Below are positions 9,881-59,089 of a DNA stretch of 64,000 bases, in pieces. The notes below the pieces were generated by a model. It had not been told where the DNA came from. It was given only the letters and a program-made list of their open reading frames with translations, and did not search any database. This stretch comes from Rhodothermales bacterium. Lineage in GTDB: Bacteria > Bacteroidota > Rhodothermia > Rhodothermales > Bin80. The stretch spans positions 885,102 to 949,101 of the forward strand of contig CATQHT010000001.1 of assembly GCA_958296045.1 (NCBI GenBank). Direction: 5' to 3'. Position numbers and translations under genes: made by a program. The first letter of the stretch is position 1, and each line of letters begins with the position of its first letter.

Positions 9881-10341
9881 GACCGCAAAGCCGTGAATTA
9901 GTTGATAGCGCCTAAGGTAGGAACCGGGCTAATACCGGGGCGCGTGACAATGTCGCGGGGTTGCCAGCTATACCCTGCCCCATTCGTGGCAGAACATCTA
10001 CCATAGGTGCGTCAGGCTCAGTCCGAGCATTACGACGTTAAAAGCATAACACAAGAAACATCCGCCCACAAGAGGGGCAGTCTGGATGGCATTGGTTACT
10101 CGTGACGCCAAATTGAGTGTCTCGCGTGACGGCACATGGTCCCTGCGGTATGCACATGCTGTGTCCCCTTCCGTGACATGGCCCCCAAGACTTTGGTGCG
10201 CGTTGAAGCGCACACGCTGCACTCTGAGCACCGCTGGCTCCATCTGAGCCCCTTGGATGCGCGGATCCGCAACGGTTTGCCCCCTTCTGTATGGACAGGC
10301 AGGGCTATAATGTACATGCTCACCTTCTTGACTCAGCCCCT

Positions 10342-11382: not shown

Positions 11383-11403
11383 CATACAACTCATTTAGCA
11401 ATC

Positions 11404-12496: not shown

Positions 12497-14644
12497 TCAG
12501 CTGCTAATGGCCAGATCAGTGCCTAATTCCGTCTCTAACTCGGCAAGGAATTCGGACTTTTTGCCGTAGCCCGTCACCAGCAGCGATTTCTTGGCACGTG
12601 TCGCCACGACATACAAGAGTGAGCGCTCTTGCTTCCTTACGTGGCTCCTTGCAACTTTATCCAGGCTGGATTCTGACTGTCTGAGCGGCATCTGTCCGCT
12701 CCGTACCCCTGCCGCGATAACATGGTGATACTCTAGCCCTTTAACGCGGTGCATGGTGCCGATACGCACTCCCGGCTGAGTGATGTTGTCCGCCCCTTTT
12801 CCCAAGACATAAGTCGGTATCCCTGCCTTCTCGAGGCCCTCCTTGTACCGCCTTCGCAAACTATAGAGGCGGGCCACCAGGCAGACCGTGTGGAGATTGG
12901 CCCCGCATCCCAGTGACTTTATATGGTCAATGATGGCCGCTAATTCATCATCACGTGTTTCCAAATGGAGTACCTTCGGCTGCGTACCCCTGATTACTGA
13001 TCGCTCTCCTGTCTGACTGTTGTCCCCGCCATCCAGATCATCATATGCTTCGCCGCGCAGGACTGCAGTTGCCCATTTGCGTACCTCTTCTGGCGTACGA
13101 TAGTTTAGACGGAGCCTGCGTCCCCGGCCCATGATATTTATGCCAGCGTGGCTGAGCACCACTGGACGCCCGTATATGCGCTGATGCGGGTCTCCCACGA
13201 CGAACAGATCGTTGGGTCCTTCTGGAACGATAGCGCGAATGAGCTGCAAGGCGGCCCGGCCCATGTCTTGCACTTCATCTACCAGAACTGAGCGATACTG
13301 GCCGACGCTTTTTCCATCCTTAATGTATGCTGTTAGCTTACGATAAATGTCCTGCGACTCCAGAAGGGTTTTTGCCTTCAATGCTTCCTGAAAGTAGCCA
13401 AAGCAGTGCCACAATAGCCTGCGCTGAACCTGACCTAGCCGTGAGCCGCGCCCGGCTCGGCTGACTTTAAGGTACTCCTGCTCGGTGGTGATGCCGTTGT
13501 GCACGATCACAGCATAGTATTCGTCCTTGAGCCAAGCAGATTTCCAAGGAGCGTGCGCAGGAAGCTCAGCCCGAGCTTGATCCCACGCTTTTCTCGCAAA
13601 GCCTCTGTCTCGATAGATGGGCGTAAAAGACTCACCCATCTTGTAAAGGTGCCTGATGGCCCAGCCGTCAATGGTCTTTACATCAATGCGGGTGAGCTCT
13701 TCGGGTGTACAGATCTTGCAGAGTTGTTTCTGAATGTCTGCCGCAAGATTCGTGTTGTACGTCAGCAACAGTATCCGATCTCTGGGGCCTGCAAATATCT
13801 TTCGCGCAAGCCACCTAGCGCGATGCATGGCTACCACCGTCTTGCCGGTGCCCGCGCCACCGAGAACCCGTACCGGTCCGCTTACATTCATTTCAACTAG
13901 CCGTCGCTGCTCTGGGTGCAAGAACACACGCCATGTCTCAAGGGTACCCTCTAATGCCTCTGCGACAATCTCGTCGTTGATGCGGACAAACAGACGTTTG
14001 GTCGAAGGAAGTGCAAGTGCGGATTCCACATCTTCTGTGTCAACCTTCTTCTTGGGTACCTCTATATTTCGCTCGACTTGGGCGTAGGAGATATCCGGGT
14101 CCGCCAATAGAACAAGGTGTTCATAACAGTCGGCTGGTAAATCCTCTTTGTGCGCGTCAAGGTCGTCCACGTCCGCCAGCGATTTAACGAGTGGCAGCAG
14201 CTTCTCGGGCACCCCGATGCGTCGGAGCTGCCGGTTGCGGTAGCTATGGAAGAGGAGCTTGCGGTCCTCCTTAGGAGGATGTTCCTCTGGTTGCACACTC
14301 CGCACCACCGGATTCTTAACGACCTGAAGGGTGCCGGTGTCTGGGTGTATGTGGGCGCTGTGGCGTCTTGCCCAGTCATAGGCCTCATCGTGATTGTCAA
14401 CCCACAATGCAAGAATCGTGTTACCCTTTGCAGGCATCTGCAGGATAGCGCGATACTTGTCCGAGATCCTCACTGAGCGCAGCCGATTGTGCGAGGCGTT
14501 GGCAATTTTCTCGAAGTTGTAGCCGCTCTTCTTGGGATTTGCGGGGTACGTCTTCAAGAACTTTTCGACTCGCCTCCCAACCGAATTGTCTAGGTTCCTG
14601 AAGCACCTAAGGAAGTCAAAGCTGAGACTGATGGCAACCTGCAT
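12497..14644 (-). CDS. SF1 UvrD/REP-like helicase with RelE/ParE-like N-terminal domain
   Basis: Walker A GGAGTGKTVVAMHRARWLA, motif II DEVQDMG, C-terminal YVVATRAKKSLLVTGYG. The N-terminal ~95 aa (..VEKFLKTYPANPKKSGYNFEKI..LRSVRISDKYRAIL..ILALWVDNHDEAY) resembles RelE/ParE-fold toxins. Start taken at ATG 14644; a TTG lies at 14650. Confidence 0.8.
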   Translation of the reverse strand: MQVAISLSFDFLRCFRNLDNSVGRRVEKFLKTYPANPKKSGYNFEKIANASHNRLRSVRISDKYRAILQMPAKGNTILALWVDNHDEAYDWARRHSAHIHPDTGTLQVVKNPVVRSVQPEEHPPKEDRKLLFHSYRNRQLRRIGVPEKLLPLVKSLADVDDLDAHKEDLPADCYEHLVLLADPDISYAQVERNIEVPKKKVDTEDVESALALPSTKRLFVRINDEIVAEALEGTLETWRVFLHPEQRRLVEMNVSGPVRVLGGAGTGKTVVAMHRARWLARKIFAGPRDRILLLTYNTNLAADIQKQLCKICTPEELTRIDVKTIDGWAIRHLYKMGESFTPIYRDRGFARKAWDQARAELPAHAPWKSAWLKDEYYAVIVHNGITTEQEYLKVSRAGRGSRLGQVQRRLLWHCFGYFQEALKAKTLLESQDIYRKLTAYIKDGKSVGQYRSVLVDEVQDMGRAALQLIRAIVPEGPNDLFVVGDPHQRIYGRPVVLSHAGINIMGRGRRLRLNYRTPEEVRKWATAVLRGEAYDDLDGGDNSQTGERSVIRGTQPKVLHLETRDDELAAIIDHIKSLGCGANLHTVCLVARLYSLRRRYKEGLEKAGIPTYVLGKGADNITQPGVRIGTMHRVKGLEYHHVIAAGVRSGQMPLRQSESSLDKVARSHVRKQERSLLYVVATRAKKSLLVTGYGKKSEFLAELETELGTDLAISS

Positions 14645-15946
14645 CGTCAATCGTGTGTCTTGTCGGGTCTTGTTTGCTGATCAAACTGATGCCCATATCC
14701 AGCGGCGCACGCGCATGGCGGTGCGGGGTCCAGACGTTGCGCATTGCCTTGCACATGCCGTGATCTTTGGTGCCGGTCAGGCACAATAGCTCACTGCGAA
14801 AACGTAGTGAGCACGCTGTTCCGTTACATCGGCTGCGAAAGATAACCAAGGCGCGCGTAATCGGTAGCACAGCGGCGCTTGCGCTGGTCCCCGGACGAGC
14901 CCGCGGGGCCTGACAGCTTCTTTGCGCTGGCTGTGTCTGTACTGTCGCACTTCCGCGGACAAAAGAGCGAATTCCTGAACAGGACGGGGAACGTATGTAG
15001 CTAGCTCGACTTTGTCACTTGTAGTGAAGTGAGAGGTCGGACCTCCTCTGTCCCGTTTTGGGGGCGTTTTTCCGGGTGCTATGGAGCCTCGCTGATTACC
15101 GGAGCGGTCGGTGGTGGCTTAGGGGGTGTTCGCCCGTGTCTTGCGTGTCCATCCTCGCGGTGGCGCCCTTACATCGGGCTTCATCTGTCCGAATCGGACA
15201 CAGCTCACGCTACTCCTTCTGGAGTGGGTACGGGTGGCAAGCATGGGGAGCGTCACAGGATTCATGGGTCAGGAGGTTTTTCCAGATCGCTCGGCTCACC
15301 GGAGTATTCCTCCTTGCTTCTGGTCGCAGCGGGATCGTAGCTCGTGCTTGTCAGAGAATAGGGCATTTTGGGCCTCTGCCTGGCTGAAGTAAGGTTGGGG
15401 ACACGCTGGGGGCCCGAAAGGGACGCTGTGAGCGATGGGAAGGGTACCAGAAGCGCTGCGCGGCCATTTCTGACCCTCAACCGGGCTTCGTTAGCTCCTG
15501 GCGGCGCAGTGTGGATACAGCTTACCCGTCGCGGGTTTGTCGGAGACAGAAAAAGAAGGGCTCAGCCGAAGATGGAGCGGGCGAGCCTTAAGTGGCCTTC
15601 GCGCGAGCGGCGTGCCAGGCTCGTCGTTTCGCTTCTTTTTTCCTGACCACTTTGCCTAGCCTGAATTTCCACGGCGGTGCGATTTTGTGAATGTCAGCGG
15701 CAAGCCACGATGTGGCGCATCGCAGCTGCAGTTCTTCGGTTATGGGGCGTGAAGGCTTGTGCTAGTACGAATTCTGTGTCGGCGGCTGCTTCGTAGTGAG
15801 TTCAAGCGAGGAAGCGCTCCGAGACCTGGGGAAGTTGATGACCGTTGAAGCTACCGCTGGTATATATAGATTGCTGTGCTCTACTCATTGTTGCGCGAAC
15901 GCAGTCTTAGCTTAGTGTCCAACGACAACTAGAATTGAGACCAGCG

Positions 15947-17665: not shown

Positions 17666-18132
17666 GCGGAAACAGGAAAGATCTGCGGCAATCTCAGCCG
17701 CGAATGTGCAGTTCCCAGAAAGGCGTGGCCTTCACTGGCGCCACGCAATCCCAGAGGCAACCCAATTTAGTGTTTACCAGCAACAGGGTGATCACGGCCT
17801 CCTTCCGCGTCAGGCTCCGAGCGTGCGTGGCCCGGGCCGCATGGCCGTCCAGTTCGACCCAGAACAGCGGCATTCTGGGGCCCTGATGGTTCCTTGGTGC
17901 AGCCACCTATACGTTTGGCGGTGAGGTAAGAGCGTAGATGTCCCGCCAGTTGTAGGGCTACTACGGGGAGAAGAATGCGCCTGCACTATTTCAGACGAAG
18001 AGGGATCATGAGGTGCTACGCGGCTTGGCATGTCGTGCGCACCGTATCCGTCCGAAAGTCTGCATCTTGACTGGGTGCTTTTGTTGCCCGACCTTGTCGG
18101 AGTTTCTTTCCACCAATCTGGGAGGTCGTTTT

Positions 18133-18453
18133 ATGGCAACGAGAGTCAGGGGCACCTCGGAGGTGATGTTTCCGTTGGTTGCCTGCTATTTGCGTGGTAG
18201 TAAGGGTCTGGACGCATTTTGCCAGGAGCATGGCCTATCGCGTAATCAGCTGACCTATTGGCGCCGGAAGTATGCGGCATCTTCGTCTGGGTCGGAGGTC
18301 GGCGCGTTTGTGGAGGTACCGTCGCCGCAGGCGCGTGAGCGGGTTTTGATGGAGGTCGAGTTTCCAGGCGGCACACGTCTACGCCTGTTCACGCCGGTAT
18401 CGGCGGATTTTCTCGGGTCTGTGCTGCAACGTGTGCGGAGCCCATCATGTTAG
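18133..18453 (+). CDS. tnpA: IS66 orf1 (TnpA-like HTH protein)
   Basis: ATG at 18133 preceded by GGAGG. It occupies the first position of the IS66 three-ORF set and overlaps orf2 by 7 nt. Confidence 0.8.
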   Translation: MATRVRGTSEVMFPLVACYLRGSKGLDAFCQEHGLSRNQLTYWRRKYAASSSGSEVGAFVEVPSPQARERVLMEVEFPGGTRLRLFTPVSADFLGSVLQRVRSPSC

Positions 18454-18794
18454 CGCTGGGGCCGTCGCACCGGTTTCATTATTACCGGGAGCCTACGGAC
18501 ATGCGCAAGGGTTTTGACGGGTTGTGCGGTCTGGTGCGCTCGGGCATGAAGCGTGATCCTCTCTCGGGCGATGTGTTCGTTTTCATCAACCGCCGTCGGA
18601 CACATGCAAAATTCTTGGTGTGGGATCGGAGCGGTTGGGTCGTGTACTACAAGCGTCTCGAGTCGGGTACGTTCGAGCTTCCTTGCAGTGGCACTCCAGA
18701 TTGGGCGCAGATCGTTTGCCTTCTGGAGGGTGTGGCGCTGAATTCTGTTCGTTATCGTCGGCGTTACTCACGGCTGGCAGTGTCGCAGGGATGA
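18447..18794 (+). CDS. tnpB: IS66 Orf2 (TnpB) protein
   Basis: The characteristic sequence TDMRKGFDGLCGLVRSGMKRDPLSGDVFVFINRRRT..LVWDRSGWVVYYKRLESGTF. Confidence 0.9.
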   Translation: MLALGPSHRFHYYREPTDMRKGFDGLCGLVRSGMKRDPLSGDVFVFINRRRTHAKFLVWDRSGWVVYYKRLESGTFELPCSGTPDWAQIVCLLEGVALNSVRYRRRYSRLAVSQG

Positions 18795-18848
18795 AATTTA
18801 TTGTCGTGTGGTATCTTATTTTGGGGAGTTGTGTGCTTAGAGGGCGGT

Positions 18849-20633
18849 ATGAACTCTATGGCCGCACACAAGCCTCCTATCGTGCTTTCTTCGGCCCCGG
18901 CTGGGGACTCGGCGTCGATCATCGCTTCCCTGGAGGCGAGGGAGATGGAGGAGCGCTGCGGGAGGTTGAAGGCAGAGGCGAGGGAGATGGAGGAGCGCCG
19001 CGGGAGGTTGAAGGCAGAGGCGGAGGTTGGACGGTTGCGTCACGAAAACAGCAGCGTTTGCAAGGAGAGAGACGGCTACCGTGACCGTCTGAAGTTCGTC
19101 AAGGCTGAACGCGATGCCCTTCTGAACTTGGTCCACGGTGCGAAGAATGAGCGCTTTGTGCCCAACGATGGGGCGGGCCCCGAGGAGAACTCCTTGTTTT
19201 CCTCTGACGACGAGCCGTCGTCAAAGGTCGAGCCGTCGTCAAAGGTCGAGCCGTCGTCAGATACGGACAAGGCGCGCCCTGAGGCCTCGAAGCGCAAAGC
19301 GGTTTCGCAGAAACCGAAGCGGACACGCCGCCGCCTTCAAGCCGGTTTTCCGCCCCACCTTGAGCGCGACATGGCCGTCCTCGAGCCCGAGGAAGATGTC
19401 TCGGGCATGAAGCGCATAGGCTTTGTAGATAAAGAGACGCTACATGTAGTGCATCTTAAGGTGATCGTCAAAGTGCTCAGGCGGTACAAGTACGCTCGTA
19501 GTGAGACGACGGATGGTAATGGCGAGCGTTCGGACGAGGATGGCGGTCCGAGCCCCATCGTCATCGCGCCGTCACCGCCCCGCCTGAGCGAGAAATGTAT
19601 GGCTGAGCCAAGCCTGCTCGCTCATGTAACCGCCGCTAAGTACCTGGATTACCTTCCTCTCTACCGCCAGCGAAAACAGTTCTTACGGCAACAACTCCCG
19701 ATTTCCAGCTCGACCCTGGGTGACTGGATCGGCCTGGTAGCATTCCACTTGGGGGCCCTCTATGATGCGCTCAAGAAAGAGGCCCTTCAGAGCGGCTACC
19801 TATGCGTGGACGAGACCACCATTGCGGTGCAAGATCGTAGCAAGGTCGGGGCACATCACCGTGGGTATTTCTGGGTGCACCGTGCACCGGAGCTCGGACT
19901 CGTGTGGATGGAGTATCGTAAGGGCCGTGACCAGCAAGGGCTGATCCACTCTTTGCAGACCTTCGGGGGTCACATTCAGTGCGATGGCCTCGCAGCCTAC
20001 AACGCTCTTGGCCGCAATCCGAACATCGTTTTACACGGATGCTGGGCCCATGCCCGACGCTATTTCGTCCGGGCGCAGCAGAGCTATTCGGAGCGGGCCG
20101 AGCATGTGCTGACGAGGATTCAGCAGTTGTACATGATTGAGCGCAGGCTGCGCGAGGCGGGCTGCACGCCAGAGGAACGCTACCAGGCGCGCCAAAAAGA
20201 GGCGGTCCCCATCCTGAAAGACCTGAAGGCATGGCTTCAAGCGCACTTCGGCACGCCACGCAGCGTTTGGGGCAAAGCCGTGGGCTATACCCTGAATCAG
20301 TGGGACAAGCTGTTTCGATACACCCGCTTCGGGCGCGTTGAGATAGACAACAACCTCGTGGAAAACTCCATCCGGCCGTTGGCTCTGGGCCGCAAAAACT
20401 ACATGCACGCCGGATCACACGATGCAGCCCAACGCGCAGCCGTCATCTACTCGTTGCTGGCAACCTGCAACCTGCAAGGCATAGCCGACCCCCAAGATTG
20501 GCTCGAGGATGTGCTAACGCGCATGCCTACGCACACCGCAGATATTCGTGAGCTGCTACCCCAACAGTGGACCGAGCGTCCAAGCTCCGCGACCTCACAG
20601 GCATTGCTCCCAGCGATGCGGGCCTGCGCATAA
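18849..20633 (+). CDS. tnpC: IS66-family transposase (TnpC)
   Basis: Coiled-coil N-terminus. DDE core region reads ..YLPLYRQ...LCVDETTI.V......HRGYFWV......GHIQCDGLAAY......HGCWAHARRYF. ATG 18849 chosen inside track ORF 18801..20633. Confidence 0.9.
   Translation: MNSMAAHKPPIVLSSAPAGDSASIIASLEAREMEERCGRLKAEAREMEERRGRLKAEAEVGRLRHENSSVCKERDGYRDRLKFVKAERDALLNLVHGAKNERFVPNDGAGPEENSLFSSDDEPSSKVEPSSKVEPSSDTDKARPEASKRKAVSQKPKRTRRRLQAGFPPHLERDMAVLEPEEDVSGMKRIGFVDKETLHVVHLKVIVKVLRRYKYARSETTDGNGERSDEDGGPSPIVIAPSPPRLSEKCMAEPSLLAHVTAAKYLDYLPLYRQRKQFLRQQLPISSSTLGDWIGLVAFHLGALYDALKKEALQSGYLCVDETTIAVQDRSKVGAHHRGYFWVHRAPELGLVWMEYRKGRDQQGLIHSLQTFGGHIQCDGLAAYNALGRNPNIVLHGCWAHARRYFVRAQQSYSERAEHVLTRIQQLYMIERRLREAGCTPEERYQARQKEAVPILKDLKAWLQAHFGTPRSVWGKAVGYTLNQWDKLFRYTRFGRVEIDNNLVENSIRPLALGRKNYMHAGSHDAAQRAAVIYSLLATCNLQGIADPQDWLEDVLTRMPTHTADIRELLPQQWTERPSSATSQALLPAMRACA
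18933..19016. repeat. 2 x 42-bp in-frame tandem repeat inside tnpC
   Basis: gaggcgagggagatggaggagcgc(t/c)gcgggaggttgaaggca occurs twice. It encodes EAREMEER(C/R)GRLKA twice. Confidence 0.9.
19212..19260. repeat. 2.7 x 18-bp in-frame tandem repeat inside tnpC
   Basis: gagccgtcgtcaaaggtc x2 plus a partial copy. It encodes EPSSKV EPSSKV EPSS. Confidence 0.9.
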
Positions 20634-20812
20634 GCCCTCTGCGCCACTGCTGAGCGCCACTTCTGCACTGCCGCGCGCAGGCATCCAAGCGCTTGCGCCT
20701 GCCGACCGCTAGCATTCCCGCAGCCCCCGCAGCCCCCGTCGGCCCCGCTCCAGCAGCGGCTTGAGCCCAGTAACCCCAGCAAGGGGCGCCGCCAACCAGA
20801 TGCGCCCAGCAT

Positions 20813-21300
20813 GTGCCGACGACGAGTCGACTACGGTACGGGATCGAACGCAGGCTACGCGAGGCGGGCTGCACGCCGACCGACCGCTACAAGGCGCGTC
20901 AAAGAGAAGCGGTCCCCATCCCTGGAAGACCTGAAGGCATCGCTTCAAGAACACACCAACGCGCAACTGGCATCTACGCGCTGCTAGAAACCTCCAACAC
21001 TTAGATGCCCAAGACGGGCTCGAAGATGTGGTAGCGCGCGTGCCCACACCTACCACAGCACTACGCGAGCCGCTCCCCCAGCGGCAGACCTACCTTGAAA
21101 CTTCCGCGACCCCACAGACACCGCTCCCACCAGGGCGTGCCTGCGCATAAGACCCGCTGTGCCACTCCCAAGCGCGAGACATGCACCGCACTGCGCAGGC
21201 GCCCAAGCACCCTGCGCATGCCTACCGCTACCATCCCCGCAGCGCCCATCGGTCCGCTCCAGCAGCGGCCCTAGCACAGTAACCCCAGCAAGATGTGCCG
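20813..21300 (+). repeat. degenerate, internally deleted second copy of the tnpC 3' part and 3' UTR, inside the same IS66 element
   Basis: ORF 20813..21004 (..IERRLREAGCTPTDRYKARQREAVPI..) mirrors tnpC residues ..IERRLREAGCTPEERYQARQKEAVPI... The stretch 21125-21300 mirrors 20600-20810 (..ccgctccagcagcgg...cagtaaccccagcaag..). Confidence 0.75.
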
Positions 21301-21922
21301 CTCAAAAGCACGCGCCACCGTGCATTCCATGGCCTGAAGGCAAACACGACGGCGAAAAATAGTCCTCGGCACGCTACCAGTCAGCTGAAATATCCCCGAA
21401 AAACCGGATTTTCGGACGGATACTGCGCACCAGCGCCGTCGGTTCGCAGTTTGGCATCTGAGCACTCGGCACAGGTGGTCAGAAGTGACGATTCACTATT
21501 TTGCATTGCATTCTGTACCAGAGCTCGCGCACACGTTCCACCCGGAATCTACATTACCGCTGAACAAGGACAGTCCTATGTTCATGTGCAGAGTGCGTCC
21601 TAGTTTGGAGCCCACAGCCCGAGAGTCGCCATGCAACCTTTAGATCATGTCTTGGCCTTCTAAGAGCTGAATCGCGGTGACCTCGCAAGTCTCGACTCCT
21701 GGTACACTTCCGGCGATCGGTCTCGAGGCCTATCCGGACGTGTATACAAGGTGATTCCGAGTAACCGGAACTAGAGATCACCGCCCGTTGCACCGCGGCC
21801 GAGGCCGAGGCCGGTGCATTCTGGCGGCCTTGGATCCAGTTCGCGATTCAAGTGCCGCATTCTCCCGTGTTCCACGCGCTTCTCAAAGTAAGGCCTATTC
21901 ATCCACCAAACATGTTACGCAG

Positions 21923-24900
21923 ATGTCAGCGCAGACTAGAATTGCCATCGTGGGCTACAGCTACCGGCTGCCTAGCGGCATCCGCACGGATAAGGAATTC
22001 TGGCAGCTGCTTAGTAATCGGCAGTTTATCCGGGAACCGATTGTCAAGCGCTTTGGCCGCGGCCATCGGCCGATTGGCCCATACAGCGGGCCCGCCCGCA
22101 TGGCCAGTCCATACGAAGGCCTGATCCGTGACAAAGACGAACTGCTGTTCGATAGAGCCTTCTTCGGCATGTCGTACAGCGAAATGCTACATGCCATACC
22201 GGAAGTGCGGATGCTCCTGAACACCGCTTGGGAATCCATCGAGCGTGCAGGTTGGAGCCTTCAGGGGCTGCATAATAGCTCAACCGGTGTATTCATCGGT
22301 GCCCAATTGCCTGCCACGGCCAATTGGCGCCCGATGCGCGGAGTCACCATCCACACCGTCTCTAGCATCAGCCTGTCGATGCTGGCGAACAGGATTTCGT
22401 TTCATTTCAACCTGATGGGGCCTTCGGTGACGTACTGCACGGCCTGCTCGGCTGGACTCAGCGCGCTACATGCCGCCGTAGGCGCGCTATCTAGTAGCGA
22501 TTGTGATCGAGCACTCGTTGGTGCAGTCACCTACCTGGGGAGTTCCAGAATGAGCAGCGGCTTCAACATGATGGGTATCATCAGCCCGGATGGAATCTGC
22601 CGTTCATTCGATGCTGAAGCTAATGGTTATTTGCGCTCAGAAGGAGCTTTCATGTACGCTATGAAGCCGCTGGAGGCAGCTGAGCGCGACGGCGACCATA
22701 TTGAAGCGGTCATAGAAGCTACGGCAATCAATGCTGCCGGTGCCGCCGACGGTGCCACCGGACTTACACCGGGCCGCTATATCAGTGCACCTACCCGGCA
22801 CGCGCAGGCTTCCCTGCTCCACCGCGCGCTGGACAAGGCTGATCTCACACCGGCGGCAATAGACTATGTCGAAGCCCATGCCACCGGAACGGCAGTTGGT
22901 GACCCTATCGAGGGAAATGCCATCGCCGAGGCGCTAGGCGGAGTACGTCGTGACATCCCGCTGCGCCTGGCCAGTGTCAAGAGCAACCTGGGACATATGG
23001 AAGCGGCGGCGTTTACGTGTGCGCTGACCAAGGTGGTGCTGATGATGCAGCGGCGCACCTTTGCGCCTATGTCGCGGAGCTTTCGGGTACCAAACCCTGC
23101 CATTGATTTCGAATCGTGCCCCATGCGGGTGCAGACAGGCTGCGAGCCCTTTCCTGATCACAGCGTTACCGTAGGGATCAACTCCTTCGGATTCGGAGGT
23201 GCCAATGGGCATTGTATCGTTCGCGAGTACCGGCCTGCGCGCCCGCGCACGTGGTCGATTCCGCTGGCTCCCAAAGCGGGATACATGGTCCCGCTTTCGA
23301 CCCGTACCCCTGCCGCGCTGCCAGAAAGAGCCCACAGACTGCGGCAGTTCCTAGATAGGCACTCGCCGGATCTTTATTCGCTAGCAGGAAATCTCAGTCG
23401 ACGGTGCACCCATTTTCCAGCCCGTGCAGCATTGGTCGTGCGCACCATGGATGATTTGCGCGAAAAGCTGGAGGAACTGGCGCGGTCTGAGGAATCGTTC
23501 CCTCTGGTCGCGGACCGTGGGCCGCGCGTCGCGATGGTGTTTTCTGGGCAGGGAACGCAGTGGGCTGGCTGCGGCCGCAAGCTCTATGAAGCGCATCCTG
23601 TATTTCGGCGGGTCATCGACACCATCGAAGACTACTGGCTGAGATATTCCCCGCATTCCCTGCGTATGGCATGCTTTGGTGCGCCACAGAGTGAATTGGA
23701 CGAAACTGAGCTGGCCCAGCCTGTGGTGTTTGCGCTTCAGTGCGCCCTTTACGAACTCCTGAAGACATGGGGCGTGTACCCAGACTGCGTTGTCGCGCAC
23801 AGCAGTGGCGAAATTGCAGCTGCCTACGCGGCGGGCCTGCATTCGCTTGCCGATGCGACCCGACTAGTTTACCACCGCGCCACGCTCCAGCAGCGCATCG
23901 CGGGTTCGGGCCGCATGCTGGCCATCAGTCTGGATTCGTCTACTGTCGCCGAATTACTGGCCAGCACAAAGACCCCAGGACATGTGGAAATCGCGTGCAT
24001 CAATAGTCCCGCGAACACCGTGGTCTGCGCGCCCGCAACGGTGCTTAAGCCCGTGATGGAAAAACTCGAACGGCAGGGGGTGCAACATACGCTGATCGCG
24101 GGCAACATCGCATTTCATTCGCCAGCGATGGACCCCATACGGGAAGATGCCCTGGAAGCTTTCTCATTTCTGGACCTTGAGGCACCTGACCCCGTGGTGC
24201 CCTACGTCTCGTCGGTAACTGGCCAAGAAGTGCTGCGGCTAGATAGTCGCTACTGGTGGTCCAACATGCGGGAGCCGGTCCGTTTCGCGGCCGCCATGCA
24301 GACGGTCGTTGAAAACTACAATCCCGATATCGTGCTCGAGGTGGCACCCCACTCTGCTCTTCAGCCAATCATTGCCCAATGCGTGGACGACCGTCAAGCA
24401 CCGCCCACCATCGTTGGGAGCTTTACGCGCCACAAGGATACACGCACGAGTTTTCAGGAAATGCTGGCCGCCCTTTACCAGGCCGGACTGTCCCTCGACT
24501 TCGCCGCTCAGTATCCGAGGCCAGCTCCGATTACGCATCTCCTTCCAGGCCATCCGCGCAGCGAATCCAGGCTCGTCGAGCCGACGCTCGATGATGAGCA
24601 CATGCAGAACATGAGCCAGTATGCCCATGGTCCGCTGGTCGGGCATCGGATTCCGTGCGACCACCTGCTCTTTGAGGCGCGATTGTCTAGTGCCGCCTTT
24701 CCCTGGATGGAAGAGCATCGTGTGCATCATGCTCCTATCATGCCCACTGCTGGATACATAGAGCTCGTGTTTGAGGCGCTGGAAGGTGTCCCATTGGAAA
24801 TCGAGCGGCTTGAGCTTATGCACCAAGTTCCTATAGCGGATCCGGTCCGACTCCAGACTGCGCTACGCCCGCTTCGAGCCTTTCCTGATACGTTCGAGAT

Positions 24901-27900
24901 TACAATTTCTTCGCATCCCTATGAGGAGGCCGACGCGACTGCTGGCGAGATACATTGCCGTGGTCGAGTGCGGCGGACAGATACGAGGTTCCCGCTGGGC
25001 GTGCCGAGGCACCTGTCAGAGATTGATGCCTCGCTTCATACCCAAGTGGCCTTCGATTCAGACGAAGAATTGTACGATCAATTCTCTGCAGTGCTGGGCG
25101 ACACCTTTCAGTATGGCCCAAACTTCAGAAATATCCGAAACCTTCGGCGCGACCCGGTTGTGGGCAACTTGCTGTTTGAGTTGGAAATGGACGAGGCGCT
25201 GTGGAGGGGCGGCCAAAGCGAAGGCTTCGTATACAATCCGGCACTGCTTGATGGAGGACTCCAGGCATTTCTCTATGATCTGACGGTAGGGATGGGAGGT
25301 GACACCTTTTCCATTCCGCTCCGAGTGGAAAACGTAGTGCTGGTGCGTGCCCCAAGTTCCAATAGAATGGTGTGCCGGGTCACATACCCCAACAACAAAC
25401 GCTACGAAGTGGATGATAATGGTCAGTATTCGATCCCGAACGGTGAGTGGGTTTCAGGGAGTCTAAGCTGCTATGATGCGGTCACCGGGGACCTGATTCT
25501 GAACGTTGGGAAGTACATTTCCTTTAACTCGGACTCAAAGCGGATCGCATTTCCAAACAGTAGGCATTTTATACGCTGGCAGCGGAAAGCAATTACGGAC
25601 AGCCACCGCATAGTCTCCCGAATCCCGAATGGAGACATAGCACCTTCAATGCTGCTGAGCCTATTGGAAACGTCTGGTTTGCACGAGGCTCGGGTCTGCC
25701 GCATCGCAGAATTTGCTGGAGAAAGAGAGCCGGGGCAGACGGTGCTTGCGTGTTGCATAGACCACCTTGTCGCCAGTGAGGCGCAGAGCGAGTACTGGTT
25801 GGTATGCTCGAGCGAAGCCGGTGCGCGCGCCTGTTATGACGAGTTTCATGGTCATCGTGCGACGCTGCGCTTCATCTCTAGGGAAGCACAGCCTGACCAC
25901 GACTCTGCACTGCAGGATTCATTATTTCGACGTAATGCCGCCGATCTTCTGATACTGCACGGCGACACGGACTTTGAGCCAGCCGATTGGACCTTCTGGA
26001 GACGCCTACTGATCAGCGGCGGGCTGGCGTTGGTCGTTCACGAGGCAGATGCCTTCAAACAGCCAGATGCGGGTTGGACGACCTTACGTGCTGGGTCCAG
26101 GTCCACACTACTTGGCGCGCCCGTGACCACGACAGCCCTCACGCGCGAGTCGAGGATGCCCGTGCCTGGGCCACGTTGGGTTATTGGAGAGCCATCAAGC
26201 CTGGCAGAAGCGTGGGCCTCGCGCTTCAATGGAGCTGATGTTACCAGTATCCCTGAAGCGTTTCAGCCATCTGAGTTTTTTTCTGCGGAAGAGCAGCCGG
26301 ATGCGGCTGTGGTGCAGGCGATTGATGTCTTTTTTGGCAACGACCCGCAGGATCCCACTGGAGAAAATGCGCTCATTCAGTTTTTGCCCATCATTCAGTC
26401 CCTCATCTACTACCGCGCCGAGAACGCGGAGTGCGACTGTCGCTTGACCGTAATAACCCATCGTGCAGCTTCTGACGTGCATAATCCGCGCGGCGCCGCC
26501 TTGTGGGGTGCACTGCGATGCATGGTATTGGAGATTGGGCCTGAGATCAGGCTGGATCTCCGCTTGGTAGATGTTGGTTCGGAAGACGACCTAGCGGTAG
26601 TGGCGCACCTGGCGCGGCATGACGTACGTGAGCGTGAGCTTGTCGTGCGCGATGGCGAGATCTGGGTGCCCCGCATTCATAGCGACAGGCGTCTGCATCA
26701 CCCTATTGCCACCCAGGAGGATCCTCCGTACCGGCTCTTCGTGGACGATGTAGGTCAGGTAGGCGGCCTACGTATGAAGACCTACGATCCGAAGCCTCTC
26801 TCAGCAGATGCCGTGGAGGTAGACATCGATACCGCGGCGCTGAATTTCCGCGATGTCATGGTAACGCTCGGACTGCTGCCTGCTCTTGCCTTTGAGCGAT
26901 CCGGCGTTGGAAGGGAAATTGGCATGGAAGCCAGCGGTATCGTTCGCCGCATCGGCTCTGACGTGGACGAGTTGCAGGTGGGCGACAAGGTAGTGATAGT
27001 AGGTGCGGGCTGCATCGCTAATCGCGTGACGGCTAAAACATACCAGGTGTTCCCAGTGCCAGAGGGCTTATCTATGGATCAGGCCGGCGCATCCTTGACG
27101 GTGCTGGCCACAGCCTACTATGCGCTTGTGCATCTGGCGCAGCTTCGACACGGGCAGCGTGTACTCATTCACTCGGCCATGGGCGGCGTAGGCCAGGCAG
27201 CCATCGCACTGGCCAGACATGTGGGCGCTGAGATCTACGCTACAGCGGGAAGTGATAGCAAGCGCAATCAGCTTCTCTCCATGGGAGTGGCGGCCGCATT
27301 TGACTCGCATTCCACATCGTGGTACTCTGAGCTGATGCAGGCCACTGGCGACGGTGTGGATGTCGTTCTAAATTCATTGGCTGGTCCGCATGTGCCGCTG
27401 TGCCTTCGTGCATTACGCCCGGGCGGATGGCACTGTGAAATTGGTAAGGTCGACATCTACTCCGACGGTCAGGTCGACCTACGTCTGCTGCGCAAGAACC
27501 TCAGCTTTGCCGCCATCGATATGGATCGGCTCATGCTGGATGATCCGCACCTGTCGCGGCAGATTTCTGAAACGTGCACGGACCTATTAGACCGCGGCAT
27601 TGTGCCACCGTTGCCAGTCACCGTCTTTCCGTTTGGAGCGTTTACCAAAGCCTTCCGGCTGATGGCGTCGGGCCAGCATCAAGGTAAGATCGTGCTGAAG
27701 GCGCCCGCCTCGCTGGCTGATCGCGACTTTCACGTTGATGATCGCCGACCATTCTTCGATCCCGATGCAACCTACCTGGTAACCGGCGGACTAGGAGGAT
27801 TCGGATTGCGCTTGGTGCCCTACCTCGTGGCTGCGGGAGCGCGACACCTGACGCTTCTGGATCGCGACCCGAATCAACGTAGGAGAGCCAAGTGGCTATA

Positions 27901-28912
27901 CACCCGTACTTCCCTCCCTGGTATGTCAACGTCAGCCGAGTTTGACTTTATCCAGGGAGATGCTTCCATCGAAGCGGACATTCAGCAGTGCGTGGCCAGC
28001 CTGAAGAAACCGCTCAAAGGCGTGTTCCACCTGGCTGGCATCCTCGATGACAGGTTGCTTGTCGATGTGACCCCAGAGTCTGTCCATCGCATATTTGCTC
28101 CCAAGGCATGTGGGGCGCTCTACCTGCATCGTGCAACACAAGGGCATGCCCTGGACTATTTCGTTATGTTTTCGTCTGTAGCCGGGACATTTGGTAACGT
28201 TGGGCAGACCGCCTACGGCGCAGCCAACGCCTTTGTGGACGCATTGGCTGCTATGCGCCGGCGGCAGGATTTGCCAGCATTGTCATACATCTTGGCAGCT
28301 ATTGGCGATGTGGGCATGGCCGCGCGCAACCTCTCTGTTTTACAACTGGCGCGGACCTCGGGGATGCCTCCTGTCAGCAGCAGTCTTGCGGCTGCAAACT
28401 TGGACTATGCCCTGAGGCGAGCCCCTGGCGATCATGTGATCACGGCCTTGTTCAAGCGCGTATTCTGGGAGCTTGACTCTTCGGACTACCTGCGCGTGGG
28501 CACGCTGATTGGCAATCAGTTTGCATTCGATACGGGATCGAACGATCAGCTGACGACGGACATCATCACGACACGTATCGCAAGCAAAGTCGCGGACCTG
28601 TGCGGCCACGATGACTTCAACACGGATGAGCCGCTTTCCAGTCTGGGACTCAACTCTATCTCAGTAGCTGAGTTGGCGGCCTTCATTCGCAGCGATTTCA
28701 ATTTTCGTGCCAGTGCACTTGAGCTGATGACTACCGCTTCGTGCCAGTCACTGGCCGATGCCATCGTAACGGGCTCGGATTCTGCAAAGGAATCCGAGAG
28801 TACGGCGCCAGACACAGAGCAAGTAGCATCCACTTCCAGGGGACGGGTGCGACGGGCAGGACGAAAGCCTTCAGTGTTTGCCAGCGACACTGAAGATCAC
28901 TTCAGGTCCTGA
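21923..28912 (+). CDS. reducing type I polyketide synthase, KS-AT-DH-(pseudoMT/structural)-ER-KR-ACP
   Basis: KS: TACSAG (Cys codon 22445-22447), EAHATGT, NLGHMEAAA. AT: FSGQGTQW, AHSSGE (23795-23809), FHS. DH: HGPLVGHRIP. ER: LNFRDVM, HSAMGGVGQAA. KR: YLVTGGLGGFG, SSVAGTFGNVGQTAYGAANAF. ACP: LGLNSIS (Ser codon 28655-28657). ATG 21923 chosen inside track ORF 21788..28912. Confidence 0.9.
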   Translation: MSAQTRIAIVGYSYRLPSGIRTDKEFWQLLSNRQFIREPIVKRFGRGHRPIGPYSGPARMASPYEGLIRDKDELLFDRAFFGMSYSEMLHAIPEVRMLLNTAWESIERAGWSLQGLHNSSTGVFIGAQLPATANWRPMRGVTIHTVSSISLSMLANRISFHFNLMGPSVTYCTACSAGLSALHAAVGALSSSDCDRALVGAVTYLGSSRMSSGFNMMGIISPDGICRSFDAEANGYLRSEGAFMYAMKPLEAAERDGDHIEAVIEATAINAAGAADGATGLTPGRYISAPTRHAQASLLHRALDKADLTPAAIDYVEAHATGTAVGDPIEGNAIAEALGGVRRDIPLRLASVKSNLGHMEAAAFTCALTKVVLMMQRRTFAPMSRSFRVPNPAIDFESCPMRVQTGCEPFPDHSVTVGINSFGFGGANGHCIVREYRPARPRTWSIPLAPKAGYMVPLSTRTPAALPERAHRLRQFLDRHSPDLYSLAGNLSRRCTHFPARAALVVRTMDDLREKLEELARSEESFPLVADRGPRVAMVFSGQGTQWAGCGRKLYEAHPVFRRVIDTIEDYWLRYSPHSLRMACFGAPQSELDETELAQPVVFALQCALYELLKTWGVYPDCVVAHSSGEIAAAYAAGLHSLADATRLVYHRATLQQRIAGSGRMLAISLDSSTVAELLASTKTPGHVEIACINSPANTVVCAPATVLKPVMEKLERQGVQHTLIAGNIAFHSPAMDPIREDALEAFSFLDLEAPDPVVPYVSSVTGQEVLRLDSRYWWSNMREPVRFAAAMQTVVENYNPDIVLEVAPHSALQPIIAQCVDDRQAPPTIVGSFTRHKDTRTSFQEMLAALYQAGLSLDFAAQYPRPAPITHLLPGHPRSESRLVEPTLDDEHMQNMSQYAHGPLVGHRIPCDHLLFEARLSSAAFPWMEEHRVHHAPIMPTAGYIELVFEALEGVPLEIERLELMHQVPIADPVRLQTALRPLRAFPDTFEITISSHPYEEADATAGEIHCRGRVRRTDTRFPLGVPRHLSEIDASLHTQVAFDSDEELYDQFSAVLGDTFQYGPNFRNIRNLRRDPVVGNLLFELEMDEALWRGGQSEGFVYNPALLDGGLQAFLYDLTVGMGGDTFSIPLRVENVVLVRAPSSNRMVCRVTYPNNKRYEVDDNGQYSIPNGEWVSGSLSCYDAVTGDLILNVGKYISFNSDSKRIAFPNSRHFIRWQRKAITDSHRIVSRIPNGDIAPSMLLSLLETSGLHEARVCRIAEFAGEREPGQTVLACCIDHLVASEAQSEYWLVCSSEAGARACYDEFHGHRATLRFISREAQPDHDSALQDSLFRRNAADLLILHGDTDFEPADWTFWRRLLISGGLALVVHEADAFKQPDAGWTTLRAGSRSTLLGAPVTTTALTRESRMPVPGPRWVIGEPSSLAEAWASRFNGADVTSIPEAFQPSEFFSAEEQPDAAVVQAIDVFFGNDPQDPTGENALIQFLPIIQSLIYYRAENAECDCRLTVITHRAASDVHNPRGAALWGALRCMVLEIGPEIRLDLRLVDVGSEDDLAVVAHLARHDVRERELVVRDGEIWVPRIHSDRRLHHPIATQEDPPYRLFVDDVGQVGGLRMKTYDPKPLSADAVEVDIDTAALNFRDVMVTLGLLPALAFERSGVGREIGMEASGIVRRIGSDVDELQVGDKVVIVGAGCIANRVTAKTYQVFPVPEGLSMDQAGASLTVLATAYYALVHLAQLRHGQRVLIHSAMGGVGQAAIALARHVGAEIYATAGSDSKRNQLLSMGVAAAFDSHSTSWYSELMQATGDGVDVVLNSLAGPHVPLCLRALRPGGWHCEIGKVDIYSDGQVDLRLLRKNLSFAAIDMDRLMLDDPHLSRQISETCTDLLDRGIVPPLPVTVFPFGAFTKAFRLMASGQHQGKIVLKAPASLADRDFHVDDRRPFFDPDATYLVTGGLGGFGLRLVPYLVAAGARHLTLLDRDPNQRRRAKWLYTRTSLPGMSTSAEFDFIQGDASIEADIQQCVASLKKPLKGVFHLAGILDDRLLVDVTPESVHRIFAPKACGALYLHRATQGHALDYFVMFSSVAGTFGNVGQTAYGAANAFVDALAAMRRRQDLPALSYILAAIGDVGMAARNLSVLQLARTSGMPPVSSSLAAANLDYALRRAPGDHVITALFKRVFWELDSSDYLRVGTLIGNQFAFDTGSNDQLTTDIITTRIASKVADLCGHDDFNTDEPLSSLGLNSISVAELAAFIRSDFNFRASALELMTTASCQSLADAIVTGSDSAKESESTAPDTEQVASTSRGRVRRAGRKPSVFASDTEDHFRS

Positions 28913-28984
28913 CAATTGGAACGCGCAAAGGCAGCAGCACGCTGCTAGGTAACCTCCTCATTTGGATTACATATACGCCCGAGC

Positions 28985-31483
28985 ATGTTGGAGAACAAAC
29001 CCCCTAAGGATACAAGCGTGTCCCCACTCAACGGCCGGATGCCGCGTAAGTGCGAGAGTGACCTAATCAACTTGCGCCGCTTCATCAGCTCAATAACGGC
29101 AGAGGAGCAGCCCGCTGAAGCGGTTTCGCCTGCCGCATTTCAAGAGGTCTTTCTGACCGGCGCCACCGGCTTCATAGGCCGATTTCTTGTTCGCGAACTC
29201 TTGCAACAGAGCGAGCGGCTGAGCATCCACTGCTTGGTTCGCGCAGGCAACATCGAGGAGGGCTTAGCGCGGGTGCGCGATGCCATGACGGTGGCGGAAA
29301 TTTGGGACGATGCCTATCAGGATCGATTGCGCATCCTTCCCGGCGATCTTACTCTGGAGCGATTCGGGCTGGAGGAAGAAGTATTTAACGTTCTTGCTGA
29401 CAGGGTTGATGCGGTATATCATGTGGCTGGACGCGTCTCATTGGCAATGTCATACAGCTCGGCCCGAGTATATAACGTGGTGGGTATGCGACCCGTGCTC
29501 CAGTTATGCCTGCGCGCGCGTCGTAAGCATCTGTACTATATCTCTACACTGGGAATTTTTCCCGAATACTTCGCAAGGTTCACGGGCCGCTACGAAAGTT
29601 GCCGTATCGAGCACCATGGCCAACCTGATGTGCGGGAGATGATGTGGCTGTTTCCACTTGGCATCGCGGGATATGTATGGAGTAAGCTGGTTGCCGAGCA
29701 GTGTTCCCTGGCGGCGCAGGCCGTTGGACTGCCCGTCGCCGTGTTTCGTCTCCCGAACATGACGCTAGCCAGCACAGGATACACTGATCCCAACAATGTC
29801 GAAGTGCGGATGGTTGCGGCTTCGAATCAGACCGGCAAAATTCCGCAGGGCTTCTCACAGCGTATTTCGGGCGAACCTGCCGCCGCTGTGGCCGAAAGTA
29901 TTGTGGCTGTTTCGCTGAACCCAGACCGGCGTTATACCATCTATCATTGCTGTGATCCTGACCCTTCTTCGGAGGTGTTGGAGACTGCTGACCTTGGGAT
30001 CTACTGGAAAAAGGTTTCTTATTCCACGTTCAAGCTCGCATGTCTGGCGCATGGGGACAGCTCACCGCTCAATGGTTTGTGGCCAGCTCTTGACCACTTC
30101 AGACAATTATGGTATGAGCGTGGCAGTTACCCTGGTAGGCAGCCGATCAGCGATCGATCTTTAAGGGAAGACTGCCCGCGACCCATACACTGGCCAGCTC
30201 GTCTGGTCTGTAATTTGCGCTCTTACCTCTGGATCTGGCGTAACCGCGAAGCATGGCCGTATCCGAAGGCAGAGATTTGCCTTGACCACAATCGGCTCCT
30301 GGAGCGGGCTCAGCACTATGCGGACACCGCCGGTGTTTCTTTTGAGGATGCATATCCCTCAGAAAGTCTGGAAGGCTTGAAGCAGTTGGTAGAAGCGCTG
30401 CAGCGGCCCGAAGCCCGCATGCTACCGAGTGGGATTCGCGAAGCGGTCTACATTCTTGGGCATGGCCTCCGCGTCGGTGCGGCGTTGGAACGAGAACGAC
30501 TTGCGCATCCCGAGATTGTGAACCATGAGGTGGTGCGGCCGATCTTCATCATCGGGATTAACCGTACTGGAACGACACTGCTGCATCGGCTCATGGCGCG
30601 TGACCAGAGGCATTGGGCGCTGCGCTATTACGAGCTTGCTGAGCCCGTTCTTGCATCTGGACGTTACGATAAGTTCGCATCTTCGAAACAGGATCCCCGC
30701 TACACCTATCGGAAGGAGCTGCTCGAGTCCAAAGATGCCAGTGACCGATTCGCCGGCATTCACGCGACGGAGGTTGACGACCCGGAAGAGGACTTGTGGC
30801 TGTTTATGTACCGGTTTCTGAGTTGGGCCTACTCGACCCTCTACCATATTCCGCAATATTATGAATGGCTTTTGGGCACGGATTCACGGCCCGCATACAG
30901 GATGCACCGGCGGTTCATACAGCATTTTACGTGGCAGAGGCGTCAGCAGGACAAGGGCGGCCAGCGATGCTGGCTACTTAAGATGCCCTGGCATCTGATG
31001 CGGTTTGACACTCTTGTCGAAACATACCCGGACGCCACCTTTATACAGACACACAGAGATCCTGCAGAGGTGATGGGCTCATGGAACAGCCTGGTTACGC
31101 AACTAAGGAGCCGTACAATGGAGCCGCGCCCAGCGGATGAAACCGGTGCTGAGCAGCTAGCCCGCATGAGTCACATGCTTAATGGTGCCACAGCGTTTCG
31201 CGCGGCGCATCCCGAGCTGGAATCACGCTGGATTGATGTCAGATTCACGGACTTGGTTGCTGGGCCTATAGCCACAGTCCGCGACATTTACCAGGAGGCC
31301 GGATGGCCGCTCACGGAGGAAGCAGTGCATGCCATGCGCGCGTGGCTGCTGGATCAGCAAGAAAAGCGTCGCAAGGAATCCCGCCATCAGTACAGCCTTA
31401 GCGACTACGGATTGAGCGCGGAAACCGTGCGTGATGCATTTTCTCCGTATCTCGACTTCGTTGCTGCGCGCGGCCTCATGTAG
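28985..31483 (+). CDS. fusion protein: thioester-reductase-type SDR domain plus sulfotransferase domain
   Basis: The N-terminal half has FLTGATGFIGRFLVRELL and YVWSKLVAE (TR/NAD_binding_4-like GxxGxxG and YxxxK). The C-terminal half has IFIIGINRTGTTLLHRLMA (a PAPS-binding-loop-like sulfotransferase motif). It lies 72 nt downstream of the PKS on the same strand. Confidence 0.8.
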   Translation: MLENKPPKDTSVSPLNGRMPRKCESDLINLRRFISSITAEEQPAEAVSPAAFQEVFLTGATGFIGRFLVRELLQQSERLSIHCLVRAGNIEEGLARVRDAMTVAEIWDDAYQDRLRILPGDLTLERFGLEEEVFNVLADRVDAVYHVAGRVSLAMSYSSARVYNVVGMRPVLQLCLRARRKHLYYISTLGIFPEYFARFTGRYESCRIEHHGQPDVREMMWLFPLGIAGYVWSKLVAEQCSLAAQAVGLPVAVFRLPNMTLASTGYTDPNNVEVRMVAASNQTGKIPQGFSQRISGEPAAAVAESIVAVSLNPDRRYTIYHCCDPDPSSEVLETADLGIYWKKVSYSTFKLACLAHGDSSPLNGLWPALDHFRQLWYERGSYPGRQPISDRSLREDCPRPIHWPARLVCNLRSYLWIWRNREAWPYPKAEICLDHNRLLERAQHYADTAGVSFEDAYPSESLEGLKQLVEALQRPEARMLPSGIREAVYILGHGLRVGAALERERLAHPEIVNHEVVRPIFIIGINRTGTTLLHRLMARDQRHWALRYYELAEPVLASGRYDKFASSKQDPRYTYRKELLESKDASDRFAGIHATEVDDPEEDLWLFMYRFLSWAYSTLYHIPQYYEWLLGTDSRPAYRMHRRFIQHFTWQRRQQDKGGQRCWLLKMPWHLMRFDTLVETYPDATFIQTHRDPAEVMGSWNSLVTQLRSRTMEPRPADETGAEQLARMSHMLNGATAFRAAHPELESRWIDVRFTDLVAGPIATVRDIYQEAGWPLTEEAVHAMRAWLLDQQEKRRKESRHQYSLSDYGLSAETVRDAFSPYLDFVAARGLM

Positions 31484-31912
31484 CCGACTTCGATGCATCG
31501 GCCCAGGAAACCTCGGTGGCGAAGGCCGTGGTCAATTAGGGCGCAGCCCCTCACAGGCCCATTGTACAGCCGCCTGCATGCGCCTTTGTGTCAATGCGGT
31601 CTTATTCCACGTTCGTCTCTTCTATCCCAAGAGGTCAGAAATTATATGAGTCACTTGTGGTAATTACATTCCGCTCCGAACACTGATCACTGTTTTTCTT
31701 CCATATCCGCGGGGAGTATGGTGGTCTTCTTGGGCTTGAGATAGCGCAGTCGGTGCGAGCTGTAGGGAGCGCCGCAGATCTCGGCCATGCGCCAGACATC
31801 TTTGCCTGGGCGCGTGTCCTGAAAGTTAACATGTTGCTGCTACAACCCCGGCCTCTGATGTTTCAAGGCAGGCATGCTTAGCCATGCGCCGCCGTATTGG
31901 CATGGTAGGTCA

Positions 31913-40993: not shown

Positions 40994-41090
40994 AGAATGC
41001 TGCTGAGGAAGGCTGCTAATAAGGTGCGAAGGCAAGGTAGAAACAAACGCCTTCACATTTCATTTATGTGCGCTAATATCCTGCCTTGCG

Positions 41091-58961: not shown

Positions 58962-59089
58962 GTTCACTGTTGGCTTCAATGGCGGTGCGCTTCCTTCTGG
59001 CCGGTGCGCTTCGGCCGCGCAGAAACGTCAAGATATGCCTTCACTGCGTATAATATAATGAGCCGTCCAGCGTCGTCGATATAGTATTG

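Follow-up and report, generated by a model that had tools for sequence, protein, structure and literature searches.

The 64,000-nt window analyzed here (contig CATQHT010000001.1, positions 885,102 to 949,101, of the Rhodothermales assembly GCA_958296045.1) carries a two-gene operon, swfA-swfB, with a long-chain primary alkyl sulfate as its probable product. The gene pair occupies positions 21923 to 31483 of the window on the + strand, as do all of the domains given below, and is a divergent copy of the swf cluster in its two-gene form. The swf or 'sponge symbiont widespread FAS' (fatty acid synthase) cluster was defined by Della Sala et al. 2013 (PMC3908369). The preliminary description of this DNA had left open whether the architecture was characterized; it had in fact already been published as the swf cluster, while its product has never been seen. 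New here is a divergent Rhodothermales member of the swfAB form, and the family is biochemically uncharacterized.

The swfA gene (21923..28912) encodes 2329 amino acids (aa) counted from the first ATG. Pfam searches identified a mono-modular, fully reducing type I polyketide synthase (PKS) resembling FAS and mycocerosic acid synthase (MAS), with the domains ketosynthase (KS), acyltransferase (AT), dehydratase (DH), enoylreductase (ER), ketoreductase (KR) and acyl carrier protein (ACP) in this order. The KS and KS-AT linker (21935..23434, aa 5-504) matched ketoacyl-synt at aa 5-252 (E 1e-49) and Ketoacyl-synt_C at aa 287-383, with the active-site Cys in YCTACSAGL and the His residues in EAHATGT and KSNLGHME. 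The AT (23537..24469; Acyl_transf_1, aa 539-849, E 2e-62) was of the malonyl type and displayed the motifs FSGQGTQW, QCALYEL, AHSSGE and IAFH. The DH (24632..25387; PKS_DH_N / PS-DH, aa 904-1155) contained HRVHHAPIMP, a variant of HxxxGxxxxP, and the ER (26804..27697; ADH_N / ADH_zinc_N, aa 1628-1925) the NADPH motif HSAMGGVGQAA. The KR (27767..28294; aa 1949-2124, E 4e-48) had the Rossmann motif TGGLGGFG and the catalytic-Tyr motif YGAANAF, and the ACP (28574..28765; PP-binding, aa 2218-2281) had its phosphopantetheine site in LGLNSISV. All of the catalytic motifs were thus present, namely the KS Cys/His/His, the AT Ser, the DH His, the nucleotide motifs of ER and KR, the KR Tyr and the ACP Ser. 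The weakest domain match was still at E 2e-7, and the E-values of the domain assignments are far beyond chance. No thioesterase (TE) domain was detected by Pfam in SwfA, SwfB or the neighboring genes. A cryptic methyltransferase was sought between the DH and ER (aa 1160-1620), where only a weak match to SpnB_Rossmann (pseudo-KR, E 0.002) was found. The closest solved relatives of SwfA were MAS (E 1.7e-216), Dictyostelium Pks16 and animal FAS.

The swfB gene (28985..31483) starts 72 bp after the swfA stop codon and encodes a stand-alone fusion (832 aa) of a thioester reductase (TR) and a sulfotransferase (ST). The TR domain (29147..30103, aa 55-373) is a short-chain dehydrogenase/reductase (SDR) of the SDR-e type with TGATGFIG, R86, T188, Y230 and K234, and matched NAD_binding_4 at aa 57-298 (E 1e-48, 166 bits). 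The ST domain (30377..31459, aa 465-825) matched Sulfotransfer_3 at aa 519-777 (E 1.5e-36), is similar to Stf1/Stf9, and contains GINRTGTT (R527, G529, T530, T531) and THRDPxxxxxxS (R691, S699). The SwfB translation reads TGATGFIGRF at aa 58-67, Y230-VWS-K234, and INRTGTTLLHRLM at aa 525-537. Both open reading frames (ORFs) therefore agree with the preliminary description, which had read them as a KS-AT-DH-ER-KR-ACP synthase of 2329 aa without a TE, followed by a TR-sulfotransferase fusion. The domain searches that it had proposed upheld the TR and ST assignments, with matches to NAD_binding_4 and Sulfotransfer_3 (Pfam) and TIGR01746 (NCBIfam).

An AF2 model of SwfB (mean pLDDT 88.3, pTM 0.82) gave as best structural matches of the TR half the MxaA R domain 4W4T/4U7W (TM 0.81) and the Streptomyces coelicolor PKS TR 8V1X (TM ~0.8). 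The ST half was similar to Stf1 of Mycobacterium tuberculosis (2ZQ5; phmmer E 2e-42, Foldseek TM 0.85) and Stf9 of M. avium (2Z6V; Foldseek TM 0.79). Apart from Stf1 and Stf9, no sulfotransferase chain in PDB was matched by the ST domain at E<=10, and we assume that the CurM and olefin synthase (OLS) ST structures are present in PDB. Because no other chain was matched, the ST of SwfB appears to be Stf-like rather than CurM-like. This is in agreement with the earlier proposal that the TR-ST pairing differs from the ST-TE arrangement of CurM and OLS.

In an alignment of 28 SwfB sequences, the TR residues G59, G62, G65, R86, Y230 and K234 were invariant (28/28), T188 was conserved in at least 90%, and the ST residues R527, G529, T530, T531, E550, R691 and S699 were invariant. 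From general knowledge of SDRs and sulfotransferases, we take these to be the Rossmann and catalytic residues of the TR and the 5'-phosphosulfate-binding (PSB; GINRTGTT), 3'-phosphate-binding (PB; THRDPxxxxxxS) and base residues of the ST. Loss of catalytic residues, which would have spoken against the assignments, was not observed: the catalytic and cofactor motifs were kept across the family.

The published swf cluster consists of swfA, encoding a mono-modular KS-AT-DH-ER-KR-ACP protein, swfB, encoding a reductase plus ST, and an optional swfC, encoding a B12-binding radical S-adenosylmethionine (SAM) protein (PMC3908369). The SwfA module has no loading or release domain, and its ACP was phosphopantetheinylated by Svp (PMC3908369). 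A primary alkyl sulfate was already proposed as the swf product in 2013 (PMC3908369). No swfC was detected by tblastn anywhere in the 64-kb window at E<=1e-5; since the definition of swf includes a two-gene form, its absence is not disqualifying. The fosmid pPSA11D7 of Plakortis simplex likewise lacks swfC and encodes a SwfB of 832 aa (PMC3908369). The window and pPSA11D7 share SwfA followed directly by an 832-aa SwfB, the motifs HATGT, FSGQGTQW, QCALxEL and IAFH, and the same proposed alkyl sulfate. These two were compared by published motifs and domain order, while identities were measured against homologues in metagenome-assembled genomes (MAGs) from taxa with reported swf-like clusters. 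The three-gene clusters (PS11G3; Poribacteria WGA-A3 POR_0547-0550) have the same SwfA and SwfB as the window, with SwfC (B12-binding radical SAM plus DUF4070) in addition.

The SwfA signatures described previously include HATGT replacing HGTGT and a change of the second Q of DPQQR to I or V in the KS, and FSGQGTQW, QCALVEL, GHSSGE and IAFH in the AT, the last indicating malonyl extender units (PMC3908369). In the window SwfA, FSGQGTQW and IAFH were exact, while QCALYEL and AHSSGE each differed by one residue from the published motifs. EAHATGT was present, and HATGT was found in 61/61 aligned homologues. The DPQQR site read IPEVR, with V at the diagnostic position and with D and the first Q also changed; relatives displayed DPQ[V/I/L]R or EPQVR. 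The window pair is separated from the nearest relatives found by its identities of only ~54% (SwfB) and 46-67% (SwfA), by the private AHSSGE and IPEVR and by its Rhodothermales host. Papers from 2022 and 2023 described swf-like clusters in MAGs of Nitrospirota, Latescibacterota, Acidobacteriota and 'Thalassonella', and still called the function unknown. One 2022 paper asserted an involvement of swf in methyl-branched fatty acids but gave no new data.

A profile built from the 28-sequence SwfB alignment was scanned against species-representative genomes, which gave at least 578 confirmed stretches, and the best 80 loci were analyzed together with their neighborhoods. An exact look-up of the window SwfB in public assemblies gave no match. 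Approximately 85 cluster representatives carried the same full TR-ST architecture at 42-55% identity; the few relatives with source labels were annotated as 'SDR family oxidoreductase' or 'thioester reductase-like protein'. The best 80 loci came from MAGs of Alpha- and Gammaproteobacteria, Rhodothermales, Latescibacterota, Nitrospirales, Acidobacteriota, Gemmatimonadota (including Candidatus Palauibacter irciniicola), Opitutales, Binatia, Caldilineaceae, Saprospiraceae, Williamsia and Candidatus Poriferihabitaceae. The linkage of the two genes was obligate. A full-length SwfA homologue (46-67% identity over ~2320 aa) was encoded directly upstream of SwfB in 74/80 loci from more than 10 phyla, and the other six lacked the flank needed. 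The swfC gene (B12-binding radical SAM plus DUF4070) was found in 52/80 loci, where it separated the two other genes, followed swfB or preceded swfA. Two Acidobacteriota loci contained a tandem duplication of swfC (L049 6667-9993, L078 6379-9918), and one Longimicrobiales locus had a second full-length swfA downstream of swfB-swfC (L052 15447-22421).

Neighbor-joining (NJ) trees of SwfA and SwfB were concordant with each other and discordant with organismal taxonomy, which fits a swfAB unit that may have been inherited as a whole and spread horizontally. In both trees the window branched next to a mostly swfC-less clade, with the longest branch of its clade. By blastn, none of the 80 related loci displayed synteny with the window beyond swfAB.

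The SwfB profile was also searched over 1.84 billion representative proteins for TR-ST fusions. In P0122 (3179 aa; 46% identical to the window SwfA), P0126 and P0130, the TR-ST didomain was covalently fused after the PKS, giving single SwfA+SwfB polypeptides of ~2900-3200 aa arranged as KS-AT-DH-ER-KR-TR-ST. The didomain also ended multimodular PKSs of 4000-6700 aa from alveolates (P0134, P0138, P0145, P0149; Rhytidocystis, Gregarina, Chromera velia), in which the match covered the whole SwfB profile; unlike the window pair, these proteins are eukaryotic and multimodular and hold the didomain in cis. Coccidia also carry multimodular PKSs ending in TR-ST (PMC3908369). The alveolate cases imply an old or transferred termination module that bacteria and protists would have in common. 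Because of the in-cis fusions, TR-ST is indicated to be a chain-termination unit that would act on the PKS-bound product.

Two kinds of neighboring genes were found in the related loci. A CysN-CysC fusion (GTP_EFTU plus APS_kinase), which functions in synthesis of 3'-phosphoadenosine-5'-phosphosulfate (PAPS), was encoded ~0.2-4.6 kb downstream of swfB in 6/80 loci from three phyla (L019, 12647-14449; L023, L029, L032, L050 and L051; Nitrospirales, Albidovulum and Gemmatimonadota). A resistance-nodulation-division (RND) pump of the AcrB/AcrD/AcrF family adjoined swf in 19/80 loci, among them L070 (6833-10066), L006, L015, L020, L025, L040, L054, L055, L064, L071 and L072. In 13 loci an ORF of ~370 aa with no Pfam match at E<=1e-5 co-occurred with the AcrB-family pump and may encode a pump adaptor. 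The adjoining pumps suggest export of an amphiphile. Genes for PAPS synthesis, phosphopantetheinyl transferase, transporters and swfC were sought in the window, and none was found near the operon.

These observations lead to the following proposal. SwfA would act iteratively, like FAS or MAS, and assemble malonyl units into a largely saturated chain bound to its own ACP. Because there is no TE, release is assigned to the TR of SwfB, which would reduce the ACP thioester with NAD(P)H; with four electrons transferred, a primary fatty alcohol would be formed. The Stf1-like ST would then move sulfate from PAPS onto the alcohol hydroxyl; the long-chain primary alkyl sulfate so formed would be an anionic amphiphile. 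In clusters that include SwfC, methylation of the chain is probable as well; as swfC is missing from the window, an unbranched product would be expected here. The in-cis fusions, the CysN-CysC adjacency and the AcrB-type pumps support the logic of reduction followed by sulfation. The preliminary description had put this logic forward as inference: the domain and context evidence is in its favor, while the chemistry keeps that standing and one published expression attempt was negative. No homologue with a demonstrated unrelated role was found in the literature searched.

Several points weigh against an alkyl sulfate product. A three-gene swf cluster expressed in Escherichia coli BAP1 yielded no new compound in either positive or negative ion mode (PMC3908369). 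No product of any swf cluster or TR-ST pathway was found in the literature searched, which is not proof, as most subscription journals were outside the search. TIGR01746 (thioester reductase) scored 199 bits on SwfB aa 55-373, slightly below its curated cut-off of 213. For neither Stf1 nor Stf9 is the natural acceptor established, which leaves that of the SwfB ST unconstrained. Two- and four-electron TRs are not predictable from primary sequence, and the S. coelicolor TR 8V1X presumably comes from a pathway stopping at the aldehyde. In the window copy itself, the GHSxG elbow of the AT displays a private G625A change (AHSSGE for GHSSGE). Finally, the transcript evidence is thin and possibly due to DNA carry-over, with small contigs of >=99% identity (swfA 24537-24704, swfB 30774-31158) in one of three metatranscriptomes of the same source label and nothing in the other two.

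The ambiguity in electron number leaves room for a TR that stops at the aldehyde (two electrons), with the ST sulfating another hydroxyl, such as a beta- or mid-chain one, to give a sulfated hydroxy-aldehyde or hydroxy-alcohol, though we regard this as unlikely. Such a hydroxyl would be left where DH and ER are skipped in one cycle; iterative reducing PKSs are able to skip reduction steps (PMC3908369). No aminotransferase, oxidase or other aldehyde-handling gene was conserved beside swfAB in the 80 loci, and the order of TR then ST in one polypeptide suggests that the ST takes the TR product, as in the proposed route to a primary alkyl sulfate.

Another view is that the window copy of swfAB is inactive or decaying, being a horizontally acquired island beside a multicopy IS66 element that ends ~500 bp upstream of swfA. 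The longest branch in the clade, the private G625A and IPEVR for DPQxR, and the two blank metatranscriptomes would fit with this. However, neither reading frame is interrupted, both have the full length seen in the family and all of the catalytic motifs, and the GC content of the operon is no different from that of the flanks. The window SwfA keeps 394/409 columns without variation among the 60 other homologues, and SwfB keeps 102/107 family-invariant columns; the 15 and five private changes are within the range of other divergent members. The contigs in one metatranscriptome match both genes and are weak evidence of swfAB transcription. Decay is therefore very unlikely, and the kept columns and matching contigs support the view that the window genes are intact and constrained.

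About as improbable is a role of the sulfate ester as an activated leaving group as in CurM, whereby the alkyl sulfate would be eliminated to a 1-alkene or donate its alkyl group to another nucleophile. Sulfation as activation has precedent in curacin A and olefin synthase termination (cited in PMC3908369), and alkyl sulfates were not recognized as widespread sponge metabolites in 2013 (PMC3908369). Against this, a TE is absent, as is any other conserved partner enzyme able to use the sulfate, the Stf1/Stf9-like ST matched no other sulfotransferase chain in PDB at E<=10, and the adjoining RND pumps suggest that an amphiphile is exported. The widest version, in which the primary alkyl sulfate is an activated alkyl donor for off-loading of PKS chains to ethers, amines or 1-alkenes, spread horizontally through more than 10 phyla of host-associated bacteria, is one to which we give hardly any credence.

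The remainder of the window is rich in mobile elements. The IS66-family element upstream of swfA is complete (18039-21428), with 22-nt terminal inverted repeats at 18039-18060 and 21407-21428, and encodes a weak HTH_Tnp_1 match (18013-18453), TnpB_IS66 (18447-18794) and DDE_Tnp_IS66 (18801-20633). In public runs its contig depth was 35-40 versus ~5 for swf, and contigs broke at both of its ends; because of this depth and these breaks the element is considered multicopy. Further transposase genes were located at 44744-45715 and 46596-47867 (ISAZ013-type DDE; OrfB_IS605/TnpB-like). A scan for sigma-70 promoters and terminators around the operon gave a background level, and the promoter types of Rhodothermales are perhaps not covered by the scan. 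An apparent 1910-nt 'skip' joining 29854 to 31765 in run X6 was rejected as spurious, as it had a 21-letter anchor and a different organism label.

MlaEFD genes ~10 kb from the operon look like ordinary housekeeping genes. RadA (39644-41056, - strand) was 66-67% identical to Rhodothermaceae/Rhodothermales proteins and 74-82% identical to MAG proteins. By this protein the host is placed in Rhodothermales, and it has no genome in the species-representative collection. At 10291-12390 a proline-racemase-family gene adjoins an ornithine cyclodeaminase/mu-crystallin-family gene, a pairing that may point to hydroxyproline or proline catabolism. Two UvrD/REP-type helicase genes were found on the - strand (12497-14650 and 56658-58979), the first with an N-terminal extension of ~240 aa that had no Pfam match.

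The swf locus is one of the few biosynthetic loci that unrelated phyla of sponge symbionts have in common, and many of them do; the product has been hypothetical since 2013. Among the MAGs with homologues are Candidatus Poriferihabitaceae and Candidatus Palauibacter irciniicola. The window host belongs to Rhodothermales. If the proposal is true, the natural, detergent-like long-chain alkyl sulfate of these many symbionts would be a candidate for a common factor in symbiosis or membranes, and reduction followed by sulfation would be a new logic of PKS termination. The window leaves the overall picture of swf unchanged and adds a divergent Rhodothermales two-gene member. The in-cis fusions and the adjacency of CysNC and RND pumps make the hypothesis sharper and point to improved designs for expression. 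The swf family as a whole is a worthwhile open problem.

Compared with known systems, swf resembles CurM and the olefin synthases in closing a PKS assembly line with a PAPS-type sulfotransferase. The ST of CurM and the olefin synthases precedes a TE in cis and sulfates the beta-hydroxyacyl-ACP, the sulfate then being lost by decarboxylative elimination, whereas swf has a reductase partner, no TE and an Stf1/Stf9-like ST. Stf1 and Stf9 share the Sulfotransfer_3 domain and RTGTT loop with the SwfB ST, but are stand-alone proteins with no linked reductase and with acceptors that are not firmly established, while the SwfB ST is fused to a TR.

The terminal TR domains of MxaA (4U7W/4W4T), 8V1X and M. 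tuberculosis Nrp R (4DQV) share with the SwfB TR the SDR-e fold (TM ~0.8), the Rossmann motif and the catalytic Tyr/Lys pair. They catalyze reductive release of carrier-protein thioesters, as is predicted for the SwfB TR, and MxaA presumably releases an alcohol. These domains are fused to their own synthetases, whereas the SwfB TR of the window is separate (fused in some relatives) and carries a C-terminal sulfotransferase. MAS, Pks2-type iterative reducing PKSs and animal FAS display the domain order of SwfA and act iteratively with full reduction. MAS uses methylmalonyl and passes its product to an acyltransferase, and FAS ends in a TE, whereas SwfA has the malonyl-type IAFH and no release domain.

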